Shown: one piece after another, positions 8,992 to 16,618 of the stretch
Layout of the letters: each line of letters begins with the position of its first letter
Position numbering within the stretch: position 1 is the first letter of the stretch
Origin: a virus
Reading direction: 5' to 3' (one strand)
DNA length: 16,618 nucleotides
Virus genome (UHGV): UHGV-0216076
Program-made: the position numbers and the translations under genes
Notes under the pieces: generated by a model
The model's input: the letters and a program-made list of their open reading frames with translations, nothing else
Told to the model about the DNA's origin: nothing
Databases searched by the model: none

Positions 8992-9023
8992 GCCCTTTTT
9001 CAGGGCTGGGATGTGTAAGAGCG
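8992..9023 (-). promoter_or_regulatory. nutR (boxA plus boxB) N-utilisation site
   Basis: Minus strand reads CGCTCTTAC (boxA) then GCCCTGAAAAAGGGC (boxB hairpin), matching lambda nutR; sits between cro and cII. Confidence 0.8.
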
Positions 9024-9031
9024 GGAATGTC

Positions 9032-9247
9032 TTAAGCGGCTTTGTGTTCCGGCGGGAACACGTCATCAAGACTGACTTTTGCGCCCAACTTGTTTAGGCA
9101 CTCAACAAGAGCACGGCATGTTTTAAGGTCTGGGAAGCGACGACCAGATTCCCAATGTCCGATAGCTCCCTGTGTGCATCCAACTGCCTTAGCAAGTGTT
9201 GTTTGAGAGATATTCAGTGACTCTCGATATTTTCGTAGGTTGCTCAT
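9032..9247 (-). CDS. cro: Cro-like HTH repressor (non-lambda immunity type)
   Basis: 71-aa reading from MSNLRKYRESLNISQTTLAKAVGCTQGAIGHWESGRR; GGAGGG SD; first gene of the rightward operon, divergent from cI; recognition helix resembles that of the adjacent CI; unlike lambda Cro. Confidence 0.8.
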   Translation of the reverse strand: MSNLRKYRESLNISQTTLAKAVGCTQGAIGHWESGRRFPDLKTCRALVECLNKLGAKVSLDDVFPPEHKAA

Positions 9248-9273
9248 ATGCCCTCCATAGTAACCATGAAACA

Positions 9274-9302
9274 ATAATACGATATGTACTTTTAGAATGC
9301 AA
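9274..9302 (-). promoter_or_regulatory. PR early rightward promoter overlapping an operator dyad
   Basis: Minus strand TTGCAT-N17-TATTAT (-35 at 9297-9302, -10 at 9274-9279), 27 nt upstream of the cro ATG; the 15-bp dyad AATACGATATGTACT (9276-9290) overlaps the -10 and spacer. Confidence 0.6.
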
Positions 9303-9364
9303 ACAAAAAATACATCTTGTGCATGGATGGTTTTAGTACAGAGCGTAATAATAAGGGTATGAAA

Positions 9365-10018
9365 ATGAAATGGTATGAACTGGCTAGATCCAGAATGAAA
9401 GAGCTCGGCATAACTCAAGAGAAGTTAGCTGAAGAGCTTGGTATGACGCAGGGTGGAATTGGTCACTGGTTGCGCGGATCTCGTCATCCATCTCTTGACG
9501 AGATTGGTGTGGTGTTTAAATACCTTGGTATTGATAACGTCTCATTCAACCACGACGGTACATTTTCACCTGTTGGCGAATACTCATCTGCCCCCGTTAA
9601 AAAACAATATGAGTACCCTGTTTTTTCTCATGTTCAGGCCGGGATGTTCTCGCCTGAGCTTAGAACCTTTACCAAAGGTGATGCGGAGAGATGGGTCAGC
9701 ACAACCAAAAAAGCCAGTGATTGTGCGTTCTGGCTTGAAGTTGAAGGTAATTCCATGACCGCGCCAACAGGATCCAAGCCAAGCTTTCCTGACGGGATGT
9801 TAATTCTCGTTGACCCTGAGCAGGCTGTTGAGCCAGGTGATTTCTGCATAGCCAGACTTGGTGGTGACGAGTTTACCTTCAAGAAACTGATCAGGGATAG
9901 CGGTCAGGTGTTCCTACAGCCACTAAACCCGCAATATCCAATGATTCCATGCAATGATAGCTGTTCCGTAGTAGGGAAAGTTATCGCCAGCCAGTGGCCT
10001 GAAGAGACATTTAGTTAA
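9365..10018 (+). CDS. cI: CI repressor (HTH N-terminus, LexA/S24-type autocleavage C-terminal domain)
   Basis: N-terminal HTH ([23 protein letters not shown]); C-terminal S24 peptidase features (GNSM serine, downstream conserved lysine in FTFKKL); divergent from cro; start could be 9359 or 9365; unlike lambda CI. Confidence 0.85.
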
Positions 10019-10050
10019 CAGCCTCACAACTCTAAAACACACAACAATAA

Positions 10051-10078
10051 CCCGACCTTAGCGTCGGGTTTTCTTTTT
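10051..10078 (+). terminator. Intrinsic terminator downstream of cI
   Basis: Hairpin CCCGAC/GTCGGG with 6-nt loop followed by TTTTCTTTTT, about 30 nt after the cI stop. Confidence 0.6.
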
Positions 10079-10143
10079 CCAAAATATAAACCCATTAAAT
10101 ACAAAGCGTTATAAAAAACTAATTATATTTAGAACATTTTGTA

Positions 10144-10172
10144 TTGACTCGATAAAGTACAAATCGTACTAT
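10144..10172 (+). promoter_or_regulatory. PL early leftward promoter overlapping an operator dyad
   Basis: TTGACT-N17-TACTAT (-35 at 10144-10149, -10 at 10167-10172); perfect 15-bp dyad AGTACAAATCGTACT (10156-10170) overlaps spacer and -10; nutL follows 40 nt downstream. Confidence 0.6.
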
Positions 10173-10212
10173 TTAGCCATCAGCAGGACGCACTGACCAC
10201 CATGAAGGTGAG

Positions 10213-10242
10213 GCTCTTAAAAATTAAGCCCTGAAGAAGGGC
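10213..10242 (+). promoter_or_regulatory. nutL (boxA plus boxB)
   Basis: GCTCTTAA followed by boxB hairpin GCCCTGAAGAAGGGC, matching lambda nutL as recalled. Confidence 0.8.
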
Positions 10243-10510
10243 AGCATTCAAAGCAGAAGGCTTTGGGGTGTGGTGAAGCCAGCTAGTCACTGGCAAGTGC
10301 TTACCTACTGTTGAGCGGTGAAGCGCTCCCAACGCTAGCAATAGCGTGGACGAGATGGGGAGCCGCGGGCGATAAGGCCGCCATAACGCGCACGTTGTCG
10401 CATGGAAAAATCGCTGGGGTGCCGGTTATACCCCTCCGAATGAGACTCAACAAGCTGGAGCTAGACTACCAGCCACCACACCACCAAAGCTAACTGACAG
10501 GAGAATCCAG

Positions 10511-11408
<898 letters not shown>

Positions 11409-11531
11409 TTAAAAGACAGGCATACTAATAAACACTGCACTGTGTATTCATTCCAACGAGTGAATACACGGAGCAATGTCGCTCGTAACTAAACAGGAGC
11501 CGACTTGTTCTGATTATTGGAAATCTTCTTT

Positions 11532-11559
11532 GCCCTCCAATGTGAGGGCAGTTTTTTTT
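11532..11559 (+). terminator. Strong intrinsic terminator immediately upstream of the acidic-protein gene
   Basis: Perfect 7-bp stem TGCCCTC/GAGGGCA with 6-nt loop followed by G plus T8. Confidence 0.65.
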
Positions 11560-11572
11560 GACGGAGTAAACG

Positions 11573-11821
11573 ATGATAAAAACTGATTACCCTGCAGAGC
11601 TTAAACAAAAAGTAATAACAGCAATTAAATGCTCTTTTATCTCATGTCGTACAGATGAAGAACGATATGTCGTTGAGTGTACAATTGTCGAGTTTCTCAC
11701 AGCGATGGAATTTACCGCTGCAGAATCAATAGATGTATTAAAGCAATCAGACGGAAATGATATTGAAACGGATGATGTTATTGACCGACTAATAAAATCA
11801 TTCGAAGAAGAAATAGAGTAG
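11573..11821 (+). CDS. Hypothetical 82-aa strongly acidic protein
   Basis: GGAG SD 6 nt upstream; AT-rich; C-terminus DGNDIETDDVIDRLIKSFEEEIE is highly acidic; occupies the ral/anti-restriction slot of the PL operon. Confidence 0.6.
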   Translation: MIKTDYPAELKQKVITAIKCSFISCRTDEERYVVECTIVEFLTAMEFTAAESIDVLKQSDGNDIETDDVIDRLIKSFEEEIE

Positions 11822-11904
11822 CCGCCTGAGCGCGGCTTTACCGCATACCAATAATGCTTCACGAGAGGCATTTTCGTTATGCAATCAAATATAAGGAGTT
11901 ACCC

Positions 11905-12039
11905 ATGATGCACTTTCAGCTCGCGGGTAGCGGCGTCATGTCCGCTTTCTACCCGCACGAATCTGAATTATCACGCCGAGTTAAACAATTAATCAGAGCA
12001 GCAAAGAAACAACTGGAGGCGTTATGCGCAATGAAATAG
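11905..12039 (+). CDS. cIII: CIII-like protein (FtsH inhibitor that stabilises CII)
   Basis: 44-aa reading MMHFQLAGSGVMSAFYPHESELSRRVKQLIRAAKKQLEAL parallels lambda CIII (MQYAIAGWPVAGCPSESLLERITRKLRDGWKRL) including the amphipathic helix; AAGGAG SD. Confidence 0.75.
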   Translation: MMHFQLAGSGVMSAFYPHESELSRRVKQLIRAAKKQLEALCAMK

Positions 12040-12176
12040 CCATTAATCACCAGATGCTTCGTGCTGCACAGAACAAAGCAGTAATAGCCAGATTTATTGG
12101 TGATTCAAAAATGTGGCTTGAAGCAAATAAAGCGATGAAATCAGCTATCAACCTTCCGTGGTATCGCAGGAAATGA
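12024..12176 (+). CDS. Kil-like small protein
   Basis: 50-aa ORF MRNEIAINHQMLRAAQNKAVIARFIGDSKMWLEANKAMKSAINLPWYRRK; GGAGG SD; position after cIII as in lambda/P22; FIGD motif recalled from lambda Kil (uncertain). Confidence 0.45.
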   Translation: MRNEIAINHQMLRAAQNKAVIARFIGDSKMWLEANKAMKSAINLPWYRRK

Positions 12177-12251
12177 GTTTTACAGATAACTGGTCAGACG
12201 AAGAATTCATTCGTCAGATGAAAGATTTAATCGGTAACGAAGGAGATATTC

Positions 12252-12422
12252 ATGTCACTTGCAACCACAGTGAAGGAGAGCAAGTTACAGAGACGCATGT
12301 ACACGCAGAAAGCTCTCTGGTATCGCCATAATGGTGACCGCGAAGGGATGCGGGTATGCCTTAATTTGTCCCGAGTCGAAGTATTAAATCAGCGTTATTT
12401 CCTTGGGCCGTGTCCATTCTGA
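12252..12422 (+). CDS. Small 56-aa ORF upstream of erf (Arf-like by position), hypothetical
   Basis: AGGAG SD 6 nt upstream; ends 10 nt before the erf start; an alternative 52-aa ORF (12173-12331, ATGA-coupled to the Kil-like ORF) overlaps it in another frame, so only one is likely real. Confidence 0.35.
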   Translation: MSLATTVKESKLQRRMYTQKALWYRHNGDREGMRVCLNLSRVEVLNQRYFLGPCPF

Positions 12423-12432
12423 GAACAATAAT

Positions 12433-13038
12433 ATGAGCAAAGAATTTTACGCAAGACTGGCAGCTATTCAGGAGAATCTGAACGCGCCAAAGAATCAGTA
12501 CAACTCATTCGGCAAATATAAATACAGAAGCTGCGAAGACATTCTTGAAGGCGTTAAGCCGTTACTGAATGGCCTGTTTTTATCAATCAGCGATGAAGTT
12601 GTGTTGATTGGTGATCGGTATTACGTGAAAGCCACGGCAACTATTACCGATGGCGAAAACAGTCATACGGCAACCGCTCTTGCACGAGAGGAAGAAAGCA
12701 AGAAAGGAATGGATTCTGCACAAGTTACTGGAGCTACAAGCTCTTATGCACGCAAGTATTGCCTCAATGGTTTATTCGGCATTGATGATGCGAAAGATGC
12801 AGATACAGACGAGCATAAACATCAACAGAACGCAGCAGCAAAGCAATCAAAACCATCACCTACACCTGAACAGGTTCTAAAAGCATTCACTGACGCGGCA
12901 TTGCAGAAAAACACCGTGGAAGAGCTTAAACAGGCGTTCGCCAAAGCGTGGAAGATGCTCGAAGGCACACCGGAGCAGCACAAAGCGCAGGACGTTTACA
13001 ACATCAGACGAGACGAATTAGAAGGAGCGGCTGCTTAA
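12433..13038 (+). CDS. erf: Erf-family single-strand annealing protein
   Basis: Reading from MSKEFYARLAAIQENLNAPKNQYNSFGKYKYRSCEDILEGVKPLLNG resembles P22 Erf as recalled; replaces lambda Red exo/bet; stop overlaps the next start (TAATG). Confidence 0.8.
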   Translation: MSKEFYARLAAIQENLNAPKNQYNSFGKYKYRSCEDILEGVKPLLNGLFLSISDEVVLIGDRYYVKATATITDGENSHTATALAREEESKKGMDSAQVTGATSSYARKYCLNGLFGIDDAKDADTDEHKHQQNAAAKQSKPSPTPEQVLKAFTDAALQKNTVEELKQAFAKAWKMLEGTPEQHKAQDVYNIRRDELEGAAA

Positions 13039-13421
13039 TGGCACATTCGATTACTGTAAGACTAAACAAGCCCGCAAGAGAGTTTCAGGCCGGGGAAAAT
13101 ATCGGATTCAACATCCGTGCTGGAGTTCAGTATTACGATCGCCAGACAAAAAAGAAAGAATGGACAAACTACAGCGCCGTTGTATTTGCCAAGCCGGGAG
13201 CGCAAGCGGATTACTACCGTAGTGTTCTTGTTGAAGGTGGCATTGTGGAAATTACCGGAGAAAACATCAGGGTTGATGTTTATCAGGGGCAAAATGGTCA
13301 ATCAATCACTCTTGAATTACTGAATGCAAAGATTGGATTTGCAGCTTCAGGAAACAGCCAACAGCAGCAAAGTAGCAATCATCAAAATCATCCTGAATAC
13401 GACGATTCAATTCCATTCTAA
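13038..13421 (+). CDS. SSB-like single-stranded DNA-binding protein
   Basis: 127 aa; Gln/Gly/Ser-rich linker (SGNSQQQQSSNHQNH) and C-terminal acidic tip DDSIPF like E. coli SSB DDDIPF; translationally coupled to erf. Confidence 0.65.
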   Translation: MAHSITVRLNKPAREFQAGENIGFNIRAGVQYYDRQTKKKEWTNYSAVVFAKPGAQADYYRSVLVEGGIVEITGENIRVDVYQGQNGQSITLELLNAKIGFAASGNSQQQQSSNHQNHPEYDDSIPF

Positions 13422-13444
13422 AGTAGCAACATAAGGATTCCATT

Positions 13445-13741
13445 ATGCCAGCGCCTATGTATGGTGCGGATGACCCGCGCCGCTGTTCCGGCAATTCTGT
13501 ATCGGAGGTGCTGGATAAATTCAGAAAAAACTACGATCGAATAATGTCTCTACCGCAGGAAACGAAAGAGGAAAAGGAATTTCGCCACTGTATATGGCTT
13601 GCAGAGAAAGAAGAACGCGAGCGAATTTACCAGACATCAATCCGACCATTCCGCAAAGCCACATATACCCACTTCCCTGAATATATCGACCCGCGCCTGC
13701 GTAATTACCGCTCACGCTATGGCGCTATCAGTAATGACTGA
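13445..13741 (+). CDS. Hypothetical 98-aa protein (Abc2-like anti-RecBCD by position only)
   Basis: AAGGA SD; follows erf/ssb where P22 carries abc genes; no sequence recognition. Confidence 0.55.
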
Positions 13742-13751
13742 GGAATTTACC

Positions 13752-13919
13752 ATGAGAGGACTTGCATACAATCCCGGCATTCTTCCGGCAGAAATGATTA
13801 TTCGCCAACGCGTAAAGCCAATGCCATCGAGAGAGGAATTGCTTAAGAGAAATTCTTTTCCATCAGTGAATCAAAACAAATATCTGAATGCGATGTGGCG
13901 CAAAGGAGGCAACCAGTGA
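13752..13919 (+). CDS. Hypothetical 55-aa protein
   Basis: ATG at 13752; stop overlaps the GTG start of the Ea22-like gene (GTGA); the listed longer ORF in this frame starts inside the previous gene. Confidence 0.35.
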
Positions 13920-14584
13920 GCAAGATTGACTATCAGGCACTGCGTGCTAAGGCAGAGAAAGCAACGTGTGGTGTGTGGTCGCTCGAATATGGAGAGGGCC
14001 GATTTGATGGTGATGATGCGCTAATTCATCGTGAAGTTGCTGGATATATTCCCATTTGCAGAATTGAAGGAGCGCATCCTGAAAGCGGTTTCGATGAAGA
14101 TTTCCAAATGGAACAGCAGGCCAATGCTGAATTCATCGCCGCAGCCAATCCGGCTACCGTCTTGGCGCTGCTGGATGAACGGGAAAGAAACCAGCAATAC
14201 ATAAAACGCCGCGATCAGGAGAACGAGGAGATTGCGTTAACGGTAGGGAAGCTGCGTGTTGAGCTGGAAGGCAAAGACAAGCTGATTGCAGAGCTTGGAA
14301 AACAATGCGCCGAATGGGAGCGAAAAGCATTAAGCAACTTTGAAGAGTGTGCTGCGATGGCTGAACGTATCGAAGAGATGAGTAAGCAAAGTTGCGAAGC
14401 CCGTGAGCGTGATTTGTTTGAATCATGGGTAATGCATTCAATTTGTATCTCCAAATCGACGCTTGAAGGATTGCGCACCGAAACTGGATACCGTAACGCA
14501 ACCTTATCAGGCACAGACTTCAACCGAATGTGGAAACAATGGAAATCTATCCGCGCCGCTGGCATTCGCATCAAAGGAGAGTGA
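13916..14584 (+). CDS. Ead/Ea22-like protein
   Basis: N-terminal region [24 protein letters not shown]...[20 protein letters not shown] resembles the conserved Ead/Ea22 N-domain; coiled-coil C-terminal half; start set at GTG 13916 with AGGAGG SD (the listed ORF begins at 13895). Confidence 0.7.
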
Positions 14585-14585
14585 T

Positions 14586-15230
14586 ATGAGCACTATCACT
14601 AAAGAACGTATCGAATTGTTCATTAAATCCCCGCTTGAAAACGGGCTTACCCGTGGCGAACAAATGGAACTGGCACGAATTGCACTGGCCTCGCTTGAGG
14701 CAGAGCCAGTTGGTGCATTCCACATTGCTGAACAGCAAGTTGACGGCACAAGTGACTACATCAAGGATGGGGAGTGGCCTATTGATAATGGGACAATTGA
14801 AGTCTACGCCGCCCCGCCAGTACCGGTAGTACCTGCTGCATTACCTGAGAACGACGATGAGGATGGGCATGACATTGATTATCTTGAGCCATCTGAAGTT
14901 TACGCGCTTGGGCGAACAGCTGGCTGGAACGCCTGCCGCTCCGCCATGCTTCAGGGTAAATCCGAACAACCACAAAACGCACAACAAAATATTCCGGAAA
15001 ATATTCCCGGTGGCAACTCTCCGGTAACTCCTGATGGTTGGATAAGCTGTAGTGATCGAATGCCGAAAGGGTATGCTGATGTGTTAGTGACCGACGGCGA
15101 GCATGTCGAGGTTAAATGGTGGGATGAATCTGAGTATTGGAATAGTTGGACGGAACTTAACTCAGATATCTTTGCCGATGAAATAACTCACTGGATGCCG
15201 CTACCGAAACCGCCGCAGGAGGTGAAGTGA
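14586..15230 (+). CDS. Hypothetical protein with DUF551-like C-terminal domain
   Basis: Start MSTITKERIELF with AAGGAGAG SD; C-terminus ...DGWISCSDRMPKGYADVLVTDGEHVEVKWWDE...ITHWMPLPKPP fits the DUF551 pattern as recalled. Confidence 0.65.
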   Translation: MSTITKERIELFIKSPLENGLTRGEQMELARIALASLEAEPVGAFHIAEQQVDGTSDYIKDGEWPIDNGTIEVYAAPPVPVVPAALPENDDEDGHDIDYLEPSEVYALGRTAGWNACRSAMLQGKSEQPQNAQQNIPENIPGGNSPVTPDGWISCSDRMPKGYADVLVTDGEHVEVKWWDESEYWNSWTELNSDIFADEITHWMPLPKPPQEVK

Positions 15231-15508
15231 TGGACTCCTTCGCGAAATATACGATTATTGACTGGATAGCATTCCTTCAGGTTTTGCTCATCTGGTTTTA
15301 TATGGCTTACAGGAGTGGACAGTGGATTGTAAGTGTGGCCTGTAGCAAGGGATGGCGTTGGTGGAACCGAAAGAATAAAAAAGCGCTGGCCTTGGATTCG
15401 TTTTACGAAGCATTCAATCTTAACAGCCTTCAGCCTGGTTCTGTCGTTGTTGTCACCACTCAAAGCGGCATGACCATTCAGATTCATAAACCAAAAGAGG
15501 AAAAATGA
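15230..15508 (+). CDS. Hypothetical small membrane protein (92 aa, one predicted TM helix)
   Basis: Hydrophobic segment IIDWIAFLQVLLIWFYMAY then basic stretch RWWNRKNKK; start overlaps the previous stop (TGATG). Confidence 0.5.
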   Translation: MDSFAKYTIIDWIAFLQVLLIWFYMAYRSGQWIVSVACSKGWRWWNRKNKKALALDSFYEAFNLNSLQPGSVVVVTTQSGMTIQIHKPKEEK

Positions 15509-15666
15509 TGTGGCCTATATGTGTTAATTGCGGACGGATGTGCCTATCTGGATGGTGCCGAAAGTGCGACAAATGCACGAAGAAAAGACAATAACAATCC
15601 TCGCACTCGCGGGGATTTCTTTTATCTGAACTCGCTACGGCGAGTTTTGTTTTATGGAGATGATAA

Positions 15667-15834
15667 ATGCACTTCCGAGTCACAGGTGAATGGAATGGAG
15701 AGCCATTCAACAGGGTTATCGAAGCAGAGAACATCAACGACTGCTATAACCACTGGATGATATGGGCGCAGATAGCGCATGCAGACGTAACCAATATTCG
15801 AATTGAAGAACTGAAAGAACACCATGCCGCCTGA
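15667..15834 (+). CDS. Hypothetical 55-aa protein
   Basis: GGAG SD about 8 nt upstream; preceded by a weak hairpin plus T-tract (15631-15654) and followed by hairpin CCGCC/GGCGG plus T6 (15827-15846). Confidence 0.35.
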   Translation: MHFRVTGEWNGEPFNRVIEAENINDCYNHWMIWAQIAHADVTNIRIEELKEHHAA

Positions 15835-15860
15835 TGGCGGTTTTTTATTGGAGACAAGAA

Positions 15861-16205
15861 ATGTCAGATTTGGCTATGAAGGTTTTGAAATGGCAATCGA
15901 CTGGCGATGTCGGCATCAGTAGCGCAACTCTTGCCTCAATCGCATGTGGACTGAAAAAGAATATCTATGGTCATAGCTTCGGTGCTCCATATGACGCAGC
16001 CGATTTCCGGCGATGCGTTGCACTTGTTGAGCAGATTCCAGAAATCAGAGATTCATTCGACAAGGTTGCAAAGCGCGTTCCGGCATTCAAAGGCATCCTC
16101 AACGAATGGGATTCTCTCGTTGCTCTGTTGAAGTCTGAAATGAAGATACACGGAAACAAAGCACCAGAGACTTACAGAAGAATCAGCGAGCTACGCAAGG
16201 ACTAA
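15861..16205 (+). CDS. Hypothetical 114-aa protein
   Basis: Start MSDLAMKVLKW with GGAG SD 6-7 nt upstream, directly after a terminator-like hairpin; no family recognised. Confidence 0.55.
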   Translation: MSDLAMKVLKWQSTGDVGISSATLASIACGLKKNIYGHSFGAPYDAADFRRCVALVEQIPEIRDSFDKVAKRVPAFKGILNEWDSLVALLKSEMKIHGNKAPETYRRISELRKD

Positions 16206-16329
16206 CCACAGTCTCACACTCGATGAGGCCTGTTCATTTCTCAAGATATCCAGACCTACCATTGCTGCATCAATGCGGCTTTTTATTGCCTGATTTGCAG
16301 GTTCGATTCCCTATTCGGAGATAGCACTC

Positions 16330-16530
16330 ATGCAACACGAACTACAGCCTGATTCACTGGTTGATTTGAAATTCATCATGGCTGATACTGGCTTCGGTAA
16401 GACCTTCATCTATGACCGGATTAAGTCCGGGGACCTGCCTAAAGCCAAAGTTATCCACGGGCGAGCAAGATGGTTATATCGTGACCATTGTGAATTCAAA
16501 AATAAGCTCTTAAGCCGCGCCAATGGGTAA
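16330..16530 (+). CDS. xis: Excisionase-like winged-helix protein (Xis/AlpA family)
   Basis: 66 aa; pattern L..L.FIMADTGFGKTFIYDRIKSGDLP...GRARWLYRDHCEF fits AlpA/Xis-type proteins; its 3' end overlaps an ATG opening a frame that runs off the window, as xis-int does in lambda. Confidence 0.55.
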   Translation: MQHELQPDSLVDLKFIMADTGFGKTFIYDRIKSGDLPKAKVIHGRARWLYRDHCEFKNKLLSRANG

Positions 16531-16618
16531 AATAGCGGGTAAAATTTTTTTCACATCTAAAAAACACCATTCCAATCAATCCCCTGCCGCTTCAAGTAGA
16601 TGTCTGCAGGGGACACCA
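16523..16618 (+). CDS. int: Possible 5' end of the integrase gene, truncated by the window end
   Basis: ATG at 16523 overlaps the last xis codons; the frame stays open for 32 codons to the end of the window (MGKIAGKIFFTSKKHHSNQSP...); assignment by position only. Confidence 0.3.
   Translation, partial: MGKIAGKIFFTSKKHHSNQSPAASSRCLQGTP

Follow-up and report, generated by a model that had tools for sequence, protein, structure and literature searches.

The window analysed here, the whole 16,618-nucleotide stretch of virus genome UHGV-0216076, carries a leftward early (PL) operon that runs on one strand in the order N, cIII, kil, erf, ssb, abc2, further small genes and xis. Our subject is positions 13445–16205, downstream of genes for a cI-like repressor, lambda N, cIII, Kil, Erf and SSB on the same strand; the prophage has an Sf6-type xis and an att site at argW. 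An initial annotation had described a string of small genes between the recombination module and xis, and a reading of them as small accessory genes of the early-left operon is supported. All the open reading frames it listed were confirmed on the + strand at the positions below, each with a family match or evidence of conservation.

10214–10242, + strand: nutL-like site, read from the sequence, with boxA-like GGCTCTTA and boxB GCCCTGAAGAAGGGC; control element of the whole operon
10511–10834, + strand: lambda-type antiterminator N, 107 amino acids (aa); PDB 6GOV chain N, E 6.4e-65, residues 1–107
13445–13741, + strand: Abc2, anti-RecBCD protein 2, 98 aa; PF11043, E 1e-61; phrog_656; PDB 8B1T chain A
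13752–13919, + strand: DUF2737 protein, 55 aa, basic; PF10930, E 9e-32; phrog_1117
13916–14584, + strand: Ead/Ea22-like protein, 222 aa; PF13935, E 1.6e-30
14586–15230, + strand: EaA-like protein, 214 aa, with C-terminal DUF551 domain; PF04448, E 1.2e-14, residues 151–211; phrog_60
15230–15508, + strand: DUF4752 protein, 92 aa; PF15944, E 3e-36
15505/15508–15594, + strand: Cys-rich microprotein, 29 aa (28 aa from the conserved ATG at 15508); conserved reading frame with motif MWPIC-x2-CGRMC-x4-WC-x-KCDK
15596–15617, + strand: terminator-like hairpin 1, a 9-bp stem then TCTTTTAT; directly 3' of the microprotein stop
15628–15656, + strand: terminator-like hairpin 2, an 8-bp stem (15628–15647) and TGTTTTAT, then the shared Shine-Dalgarno junction GGAGA
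15667–15834, + strand: homologue of lambda Orf55 (lambdap35), 55 aa; phrog_676; 53 of 55 residues identical to lambda Orf55
15826–15850, + strand: terminator-like hairpin 3, GCCGCC-TGAT-GGCGGT (stem 15826–15841) and TTTTTATTG; overlaps the orf55 stop
15861–16205, + strand: all-alpha protein (predicted), HK022p30-like, 114 aa; phrog_1229
16264–16283, + strand: terminator-like hairpin 4, GCTGCATCAATGCGGC (stem 16264–16279) and TTTTTATTG; upstream of xis
16330–16530, + strand: excisionase-like protein of the Sf6 gene 18/HK620 HKaC type, 66 aa; phrog_66, E 2.7e-8

The genes from Abc2 through DUF2737, Ead/Ea22-like, EaA-like/DUF551 and the DUF4752 membrane protein to the Cys-rich microprotein form a tightly packed, largely translationally coupled block. 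On its 3' side stand two single-gene cassettes (lambda Orf55 and the 114-aa HK022p30-like gene), each ending in a G+C-rich hairpin and T-tract, and then xis and an argW-type att core. The suggestion that most starts overlap the preceding stop was roughly right: four junctions overlap (13916, 15230 and 15505/15508) or abut within 1 nucleotide (14586), a 10-nucleotide gap precedes 13752, and intergenic hairpins precede the last three genes, xis counted. The same gene string, adjoining host csc genes, occurs on a human-gut metagenome scaffold, where an independent gene caller recovered every listed frame except the 29-aa peptide. Each frame other than this peptide has a Pfam or PHROG match at E ≤ 1e-14, and NCBIfam gave no match for any of the eight. 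A scan of the window for tRNAs found none. Further upstream, at 11573–11821, lies a gene assigned to an 'anti-restriction' PHROG.

The claim that at least seven products have no assigned function was an overstatement, as Abc2 is characterised, an Ea22 phenotype has been described and the frame at 15667 is lambda Orf55; it stands for the DUF2737, DUF551/EaA-like, DUF4752, Cys-rich and 114-aa products, which lack a demonstrated function. Besides Abc2 and lambda Orf55, the genes belong to catalogued families. The 98-aa frame, listed at first among the functionless, aligns over residues 1–98 with positions 1–97 of the 97 in PF11043 (205.5 bits, cut-off 25) and with residues 1–97 of P22 Abc2 in PDB 8B1T chain A (E 2.6e-56). 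On this full-length similarity it is Abc2, and functionally it would belong to the Erf/SSB recombination module. In P22, whose Abc2 has been solved in complex with RecBCD (PDB 8B1T/8B1U), the protein attaches to RecBCD and redirects that enzyme to serve the phage Erf pathway (PMC9836394), and its relative here, which likewise adjoins an Erf recombinase, may bind and modify RecBCD in the same way. The locus differs from P22 in that no Abc1 gene stands beside Abc2 in the window.

The DUF2737 frame that follows (109.2 bits to PF10930, cut-off 25) falls in a 90%-identity cluster of 370 member sequences that carries the NCBI name DUF2737. The Ead/Ea22-like gene opens with a GTG that overlaps the TGA of its predecessor. 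Its earlier label, and that of the DUF551 protein, hold, with matches above gathering score to the coiled-coil region of PF13935 (106.9 bits, cut-off 27) and to PF04448 (55.4 bits, cut-off 22), respectively. With lambda Ea22 the 222-aa protein shares, by BLASTP, 45 of 74 residues, confined to a central segment (residues 51–123); the C-terminal domain of the lambda type, solved by NMR, did not align by BLASTP, and the C terminus here matches phrog_29036. Relatives of Ea22 are described as pro-lysogenic (PMC10834534, PMC7093339), and the protein at this locus may bias the decision towards lysogeny, as in lambda and Stx phages. The 214-aa gene has homologues in phages Gally and HF4s under the name EaA. 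The 92-aa frame (123.6 bits to PF15944, cut-off 27) had been called a single-helix membrane protein, and the Kyte-Doolittle profile agrees, with a maximum of 1.78 at residues 8–26 (19-residue window) and a net charge of +7 C-terminal of the helix. Its AF2 model, at a pLDDT of only 68, has a long helix at 9–45; the protein looks like a single predicted N-terminal transmembrane helix with a small basic cytoplasmic tail domain.

The 29-aa Cys-rich frame might be thought a chance reading frame in a stretch, 15505–15666, that is merely a non-coding terminator region: its length is below the reach of most gene callers, the identical scaffold lacks a call for it, neither Pfam nor PHROG yields a match, and the annotators of mEp213 picked an alternative 79-aa frame over it. 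We regard this as extremely improbable in the face of intact 24–28-aa versions, which 77 viral contigs and the unrelated phages C1, KFS-SE2 and Tr1 carry in different gene neighbourhoods, unrelated virulent phages among them. Five of the six Cys are kept in homologues, as are the W and the KCDK; WC-x-[KR]CDK, which our search pattern did not require, is present in all but three of the intact versions. Among codon differences, the synonymous ones are usually at least as numerous as the non-synonymous, and in every case there is a Shine-Dalgarno sequence and a start that overlaps the upstream stop, which here couples the microprotein translationally to DUF4752. We conclude that this is a conserved gene of 24–28 aa, annotated as HK106 gp30 and routinely missed by gene callers; the initial annotation was right to mark a peptide but counted four Cys, not six. 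Two leads were discarded: a 90% cluster that also takes in a TolC-like protein of 480 aa, an artefact of clustering very short sequences, and the 'DUF1244' label on some metagenome entries, which hmmscan did not reproduce.

The 55-aa frame at 15667, correctly noted as present and wrongly as unassigned, lies in a DNA segment 96% identical to lambda 29102–29361. Its near-identical lambda counterpart has been modelled and, as a modelling proposal only, suggested to be a T7 Gp2-like inhibitor of RNA polymerase, with a Gp2-like fold that would bind the beta' jaw/sigma70 region 1.1 (PMC8614690); Orf55 has no sequence match among solved structures. The 114-aa protein belongs to a family of about 3,000 clusters at 50% identity, with no Pfam model, that ranges from enterobacterial and Vibrio phages to those of Arthrobacter and Clavibacter. 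Structure prediction yielded a confident all-alpha model that has no match among solved structures. The family's invariant motif, G-x-SS ... P-x-D-x2-D-x2-RC ... PE, resembles a binding or active site; its invariant residues in the 114-aa protein include S20, S21, D45, D48, R51, C52 and E61. A relaxed Pfam scan of 49 members returned scattered weak matches only, and a mS41 SAM domain (8 of the 49, best E 0.0016) was rejected, as was a PF04447 (dATP/dGTP pyrophosphohydrolase) lead, where the database proteins that combine PF04447 with 114-aa-like segments proved to be chimeric, their parts meeting at short motifs common to both, and so give no evidence of homology. Among ten long proteins scanned for what the 114-aa domain is fused to, just one has Pfam domains (FHA, TPR, DUF6585). 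It is conceivable, though we lean against it, that this family and the microprotein, the latter conserved in temperate and virulent phages and for the most part unannotated, are unrecognised classes of phage effector, in which case the microprotein could be a minimal zinc-binding inhibitor of a host factor.

Hairpins with T-tracts had been reported ahead of the orf55 and 114-aa genes, and both are real (stems 15628–15647 and 15826–15841); with those at 15596–15617 and 16264–16279 there are four in all. Folding energies of the first three are −13.1, −11.9 and −11.6 kcal/mol, and for the fourth no separate stem-loop was recovered in a 101-nucleotide fold. The double hairpin formed by the first two folds with z = −4.5, and 9000–16618 holds 22 terminator-like elements against 7.6 ± 2.7 in shuffles; the same hairpin and signal scan also picked up the boxB palindrome GCCCTGAAGAAGGGC of nutL. 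Hairpin 1 is found beside different genes in hundreds of lambdoid phages, and the homologue of hairpin 3 is annotated as a rho-independent terminator in HK140. The four, each with its T-run, have the form of intrinsic terminators and are predicted to act as such. Literature searches turned up no coordinates that tie the lambda counterparts (29286–29361 and about 29100) to a named terminator such as tL3. An Rfam scan of 9000–16618 (E ≤ 1) returned no RNA family, which rules out the double hairpin as a known sRNA.

On the initial view, the hairpins could shield the last two genes from transcription running on from PL. Polymerase modified by N is not stopped by intrinsic terminators. As a near-identical lambda N gene (its identical copy on the metagenome scaffold matches PF11438) and nutL lie in the same operon, the hairpins should not insulate anything from antiterminated PL transcripts; the nutL boxA, GGCTCTTA, is one base off the lambda consensus, CGCTCTTA. 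Additionally, a simple consensus scan, of a kind that would miss weak or activator-dependent promoters, found no + strand sigma-70-like site between 13445 and 16300, and thus nothing points to separate expression. Insulation is therefore unlikely. Judging from the sequence and from lambda, PL transcripts would be modified at nutL by N after infection or induction and would read through all four hairpins, such that all block genes and xis would be made early. In the lysogen, unmodified polymerases that owe their start to leaky or spurious transcription would be halted by the hairpins, and xis would thereby stay silent.

The hairpins also coincide with mosaic recombination joints. Coverage of the region reaches 80% in no phage or complete E. 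coli genome, but hundreds share pieces of it at 90–99% identity, with homology break-points at 15590, 15850 and 16275–16283, that is, at hairpins. Homology to lambda, HK140 and Sf6 stops at 15850, and that to Sf6 resumes at 16275; the xis segment then matches Sf6 at 97.7% DNA identity through to the attP core. Alignment to Sf6, which has the same flanks and, like lambda, lacks the 114-aa gene, places this cassette between two copies of hairpin plus TTTTTATTG, its left joint at hairpin 3 and its right joint at hairpin 4. In the loci from other phages that we compared, three different genes come after hairpin 2, namely orf55, a further gene and, with nothing between, the 114-aa gene. These comparisons show that hairpin, T-tract and Shine-Dalgarno sequences common to otherwise unrelated cassettes mark the points of gene swap, insertion and loss between phages. 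They recall the boundary sequences of Casjens and Clark, short conserved intergenic sequences at mosaic joints, and Sf6 annotators marked such sequences ('bsq2', 'bsq3') in the homologous region.

The same architecture raises the question of whether each of the two cassettes, orf55 and the 114-aa gene, is a moron-like unit, insulated from PL by the hairpins and expressed separately, for example from the prophage, to give an exclusion or other lysogen phenotype. Both are single genes bracketed by hairpins with T-tracts, and in the 114-aa gene we see an insertable cassette, placed between genes that are adjacent in relatives and followed by a terminator-like 3' hairpin, which fits part of the moron definition (Juhala/Hendrix). 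We nevertheless judge this reading distinctly unlikely, because the consensus scan, with weak promoters not excluded, found the cassette no promoter of its own, and because PL transcripts modified by the upstream N and nutL should override the hairpins. The cassettes also lack a distinct composition, with G+C at 0.44–0.50 across 15600–16300 against 0.43–0.53 elsewhere in the region. Moreover, lambda itself has Orf55 at the same position as part of its PL operon, and PADLOC defence models matched none of the frames. The 114-aa cassette thus does not meet the full moron definition.

[quoted passage not shown] As in lambda (PMC10834534, PMC8614690, PMC7093339), it lies between recombination genes and xis within an N-antiterminated PL operon, is non-essential and mosaic, and holds an Ea22-family protein and a near-identical Orf55 with the same flanking hairpins. 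It differs in having Erf/SSB/Abc2 where lambda has Exo/Bet/Gam, an Ea22 relative that shares only the central coiled-coil segment, an extra 114-aa cassette between orf55 and xis, and no ea8.5, orf60a, orf61, orf63 or orf73. DNA similarity to lambda 27602–30861 is limited to 15591–15850, the Ea22 central segment being alike at the protein level only. Since the orf60a-orf63-orf61-orf73 cassette is absent (no Pfam or PHROG match to these families among the eight frames), the phenotypes of the lambda region are not simply transferable. With P22, HK022, HK106 and mEp213 the locus shares the Erf–Abc2–DUF2737–Ead/EaA-type order downstream of abc2; HK022 shares 13345–13900 and 15590–16292 at 96% identity, and mEp213 shares 15207–16260 (DUF4752, microprotein, orf55 and 114-aa genes) at 97%. 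However, the alleles differ at the middle genes (Ead, EaA), and the whole combination is not found in any one sequenced phage or complete E. coli genome (best coverage 72–73%).

Beyond Abc2 and the Ea22-type protein, the remaining proteins of the block would most likely act on host processes in early development or against host defences. A more specific version holds that the block is a counter-defence and host-takeover arsenal in which each small protein inhibits a host immunity or repair factor as Abc2 does RecBCD; it overlaps our preferred explanation of an accessory PL segment, from which it differs only in assigning these particular roles. Abc2 heads the block, the upstream 'anti-restriction' PHROG gene fits the idea, the neighbours of 114-aa relatives in phages PY54 and Vibrio K248 include Lar-like, methyltransferase, nuclease and DinI genes, and the high mosaic turnover is typical of arms-race genes. 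This neighbourhood evidence is loose, however; we found no sequence or fold similarity to a characterised anti-defence protein, and for the homologous region of lambda the sole reported phenotypes bear on the choice between lysis and lysogeny (PMC10834534, PMC7093339). We therefore see so specific an assignment as rather unlikely.

As an accessory PL segment, the region is ordinary and already catalogued, a new shuffle of modules that are found in thousands of E. coli prophages and are known from the named phages HK022, HK106, mEp213, Gally, lambda and Sf6. For annotation, its value lies in recognizing the first gene as Abc2 and the 55-aa gene at 15667 as lambda Orf55, and in recovering a conserved 28-aa gene that is routinely missed. 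The size and fold confidence of the 114-aa family merit a family definition and a functional test. Additionally, the region is a clean example of hairpin, T-tract and Shine-Dalgarno linkers serving as joints for single-gene cassette swaps next to xis.

We find that the accessory region at 13445-16205 brings known modules together in a new combination. Its coverage by any phage record or complete E. coli genome stays below 80% (best 72-73%), while each of its pieces occurs at 90-99% identity in many genomes. The whole gene string is also present in a public metagenome assembly (scaffold L093).

The window comes from a lambdoid prophage, of which it is the immunity and early-left region, and has the following features ahead of the string.

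9317-10018, + strand, cI-like repressor
near 10144, + strand, PL-like promoter
10228-10242, + strand, boxB of a nutL-like site (GCCCTGAAGAAGGGC, an exact lambda boxB)
+ strand, N protein, full-length match to solved lambda N (PDB 6GOV chain N, E 6e-65)
+ strand, further along than N, cIII, Kil, Erf recombinase and an SSB-like protein

At the other end, 16275-16618 matches phage Sf6 at 97.7% identity over a stretch that begins upstream of the Sf6 xis-like gene 18 and reaches the annotated attP core, and the last 15 bases match a tRNA-Arg gene 3' end found in 5420/5426 E. coli genomes. Thus, from its early-left setting and Sf6-like xis/att end, the region fills the slot of the lambda exo-xis and P22 and HK022 ea regions. 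It lies where those regions are defined by position, although the orf60a-orf73 cassette of lambda is absent.

Two separate fragments of the tRNA-Arg (argW) 3' half flank xis, one from the T-arm just 5' of the gene (16293-16310, ATTTGCAGGTTCGATTCC, 17/18 matching) and one from the acceptor end, which is the att core (16604-16618, CTGCAGGGGACACCA). The arrangement is identical in Sf6, and suggests that xis lies inside a formerly longer tRNA-derived att region. On L093 (8475-12645), the prophage end past xis adjoins host csc sucrose-utilisation genes (cscB-, cscK-, cscA- and cscR-like), as would fit insertion at argW of a sucrose-positive E. coli host. On the opposite strand, a 167-aa ORF (10827-11330, -) separates N from the PL gene that follows. 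It carries a CxxC...CxxC motif towards its C-terminus, matches phrog_1244, a group of unknown function, but nothing in Pfam or PADLOC, and has terminator-like hairpins on both sides (11331-11353, bidirectional). Exclusion genes expressed from the prophage are often located at this position in lambdoid phages. Additionally, an acidic 82-aa ORF (11573-11821, +) without a Pfam family has a full-length match (E 5e-48) to phrog_14587 ("anti-restriction protein").

Downstream of N and nutL, the genes form a single-strand operon.

13445-13741, + strand, Abc2, 98 aa (PF11043, PDB 8B1T chain A)
13752-13919, + strand, DUF2737 protein, 55 aa (PF10930)
13916-14584, + strand, Ead/Ea22-like protein, 222 aa, GTG start (PF13935)
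14586-15230, + strand, DUF551/EaA-like protein, 214 aa (PF04448)
15230-15508, + strand, DUF4752 protein, 92 aa (PF15944)
15505-15594, + strand, Cys-rich microprotein, 29 aa
15667-15834, + strand, lambda Orf55, 55 aa
15861-16205, + strand, HK022p30-like protein, 114 aa (phrog_1229)
16330-16530, + strand, excisionase-like gene, 3' of the 114-aa gene

All ORFs listed in the initial annotation were recovered, and all but the 29-aa one were also predicted by an independent gene caller on L093, a human-gut metagenome scaffold with an identical 214-aa protein and matching gene order. Starts at 13916 (GTGA), 15230 (TGATG) and 15505/15508 (ATGA or TGATG, with the DUF4752 end) overlap the preceding gene, 1 nt precedes the start at 14586, and the 10-nt gap before 13752 holds a Shine-Dalgarno sequence. 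Intergenic hairpins precede orf55, the 114-aa gene and xis.

The 98-aa ORF, previously labelled unknown, encodes Abc2 and belongs to the recombination module (PF11043, 205 bits, full length; PDB 8B1T chain A, E 2.6e-56); the Abc2-RecBCD complex structure has been solved (PMC9836394). The Ead/Ea22-like protein has only a 74-residue central segment in common with lambda Ea22, and another module (phrog_29036) makes up its C-terminus, fitting the mosaic C-termini described for Ea22 (PMC10834534). DUF551 forms the C-terminus of the EaA-like protein. The DUF4752 protein has a single strongly hydrophobic segment (residues 8-26, KD 1.78) preceding a net +7 charge, and thus is likely a single-pass membrane protein, N-out and C-in; its AF2 model is of modest quality (pLDDT 68). 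The ORF at 15667 is identical to lambda Orf55 at 53/55 residues (DNA 15591-15850, 96% identity with lambda 29102-29361), for which modelling has speculatively proposed a T7 Gp2-like contact with RNA polymerase (PMC8614690).

The 29-aa peptide contains six Cys rather than the four first counted. By tblastn, lambdoid phages carry intact homologues, usually without annotation, and so do the unrelated, virulent Escherichia phage C1, Salmonella KFS-SE2 and Citrobacter myovirus Tr1 (154 kb). A search with a degenerate DNA version of MWPICxxCGRMC matched 77 viral contigs, nearly all with intact 24-28 aa peptides; outside the pattern, W, C, x, K/R, C, D and K recur in all intact versions but three. 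Non-synonymous codon differences usually do not outnumber synonymous ones, and every copy comes with a Shine-Dalgarno sequence, its start coinciding with the stop of an upstream gene that differs from copy to copy. Together these features are good evidence, at the sequence level, for a real, translationally coupled microprotein, and its C-x2-C ... C-x2-C spacing indicates that it probably binds metal. It is already in databases, as HK106 lists it as gp30. A 79-aa ORF in an alternative frame (15521-15760, +), annotated as mEp213_028 in phage mEp213, runs across the double hairpin and shares sequence with both the microprotein and orf55. Since the microprotein frame and the hairpins are conserved, this ORF is probably spurious.

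Around these genes, in the final kilobase, a scan identified four terminator-like hairpins.

15596-15617, + strand, hairpin 1
15628-15647, + strand, hairpin 2
15826-15841, + strand, hairpin 3
16264-16279, + strand, hairpin 4

Over the scanned region there were 22 such hairpins where 7.6 +/- 2.7 were expected; the tandem pair has a folding energy of -27.3 kcal/mol (z -4.5), and the HK140 homologue of hairpin 3 is an annotated rho-independent terminator. Homology to lambda and HK140 starts at 15590/15591 and ends at 15850, and that to Sf6 covers 15590-15664, gives way to a different gene, covers 15783-15850 and resumes from 16275. In alignment, Sf6 reads hairpin, TTTTTTATTG, CCTGATTTGCAGG (xis leader), whereas the window reads hairpin, TTTTTTATTG, 114-aa gene, second hairpin, TTTTTATTG, then the xis leader of Sf6. 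Thus, the 114-aa gene is a cassette between two near-repeats, inserted here or lost elsewhere. Across the fetched loci, hairpin 2 is followed by orf55, another gene or directly the 114-aa gene, always after a shared TTTTAT(T)GGAGA junction. By sequence comparison with relatives, the hairpin elements are mosaic joints. In viral contig L050, an altered stem with an unchanged tail 3' of the microprotein hints that it is the stem-loop itself that is maintained.

Reading the hairpin-bracketed genes as morons, each an autonomous promoter, gene and terminator inserted between conserved neighbours, is not supported, because a sequence scan found no promoter-like sites inside the region, and there was neither a compositional difference nor a defence-model match. 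On the model of lambda, transcription from PL, once modified by N at nutL, would read through the hairpins, so that the whole string and xis would be expressed early after infection or induction, and unmodified transcription would halt before xis. Thus, where the initial annotation saw insulation from PL, the hairpins would instead act as a safety device for xis as well as recombination linkers.

The 114-aa protein (HK022p30/phrog_1229) has no match in Pfam, NCBIfam or PADLOC, and an exhaustive profile search places it among 3061 representatives at E <= 1e-3 (858 at E <= 1e-10), each a cluster at 50% identity. Members are mostly stand-alone and 110-130 aa, with a few tandem duplications or fusions. 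Relatives by tblastn span enterobacterial, Yersinia, Vibrio, Aeromonas and Arthrobacter phages, and Foldseek against BFVD added hits to a Clavibacter phage (E 1e-3) and, at a weaker level, a Sylvanvirus (E 0.04). In distant phages the surrounding genes are early accessory ones, such as those for Lar-like proteins, nucleases, a methyltransferase, DinI and RusA; this setting hints, without being specific, at interference with the host or at roles related to DNA. Escherichia phage vB_EcoP_phi315 (L092, 2501-2668) and other Stx phages have only the first 56 codons, 95% identical. This piece, a truncated remnant of cassette exchange, lies directly 5' of an annotated gene for a DNA methyltransferase and partly beneath it. 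The remaining interest of the region lies in this large, uncharacterised family and in the conserved microprotein.
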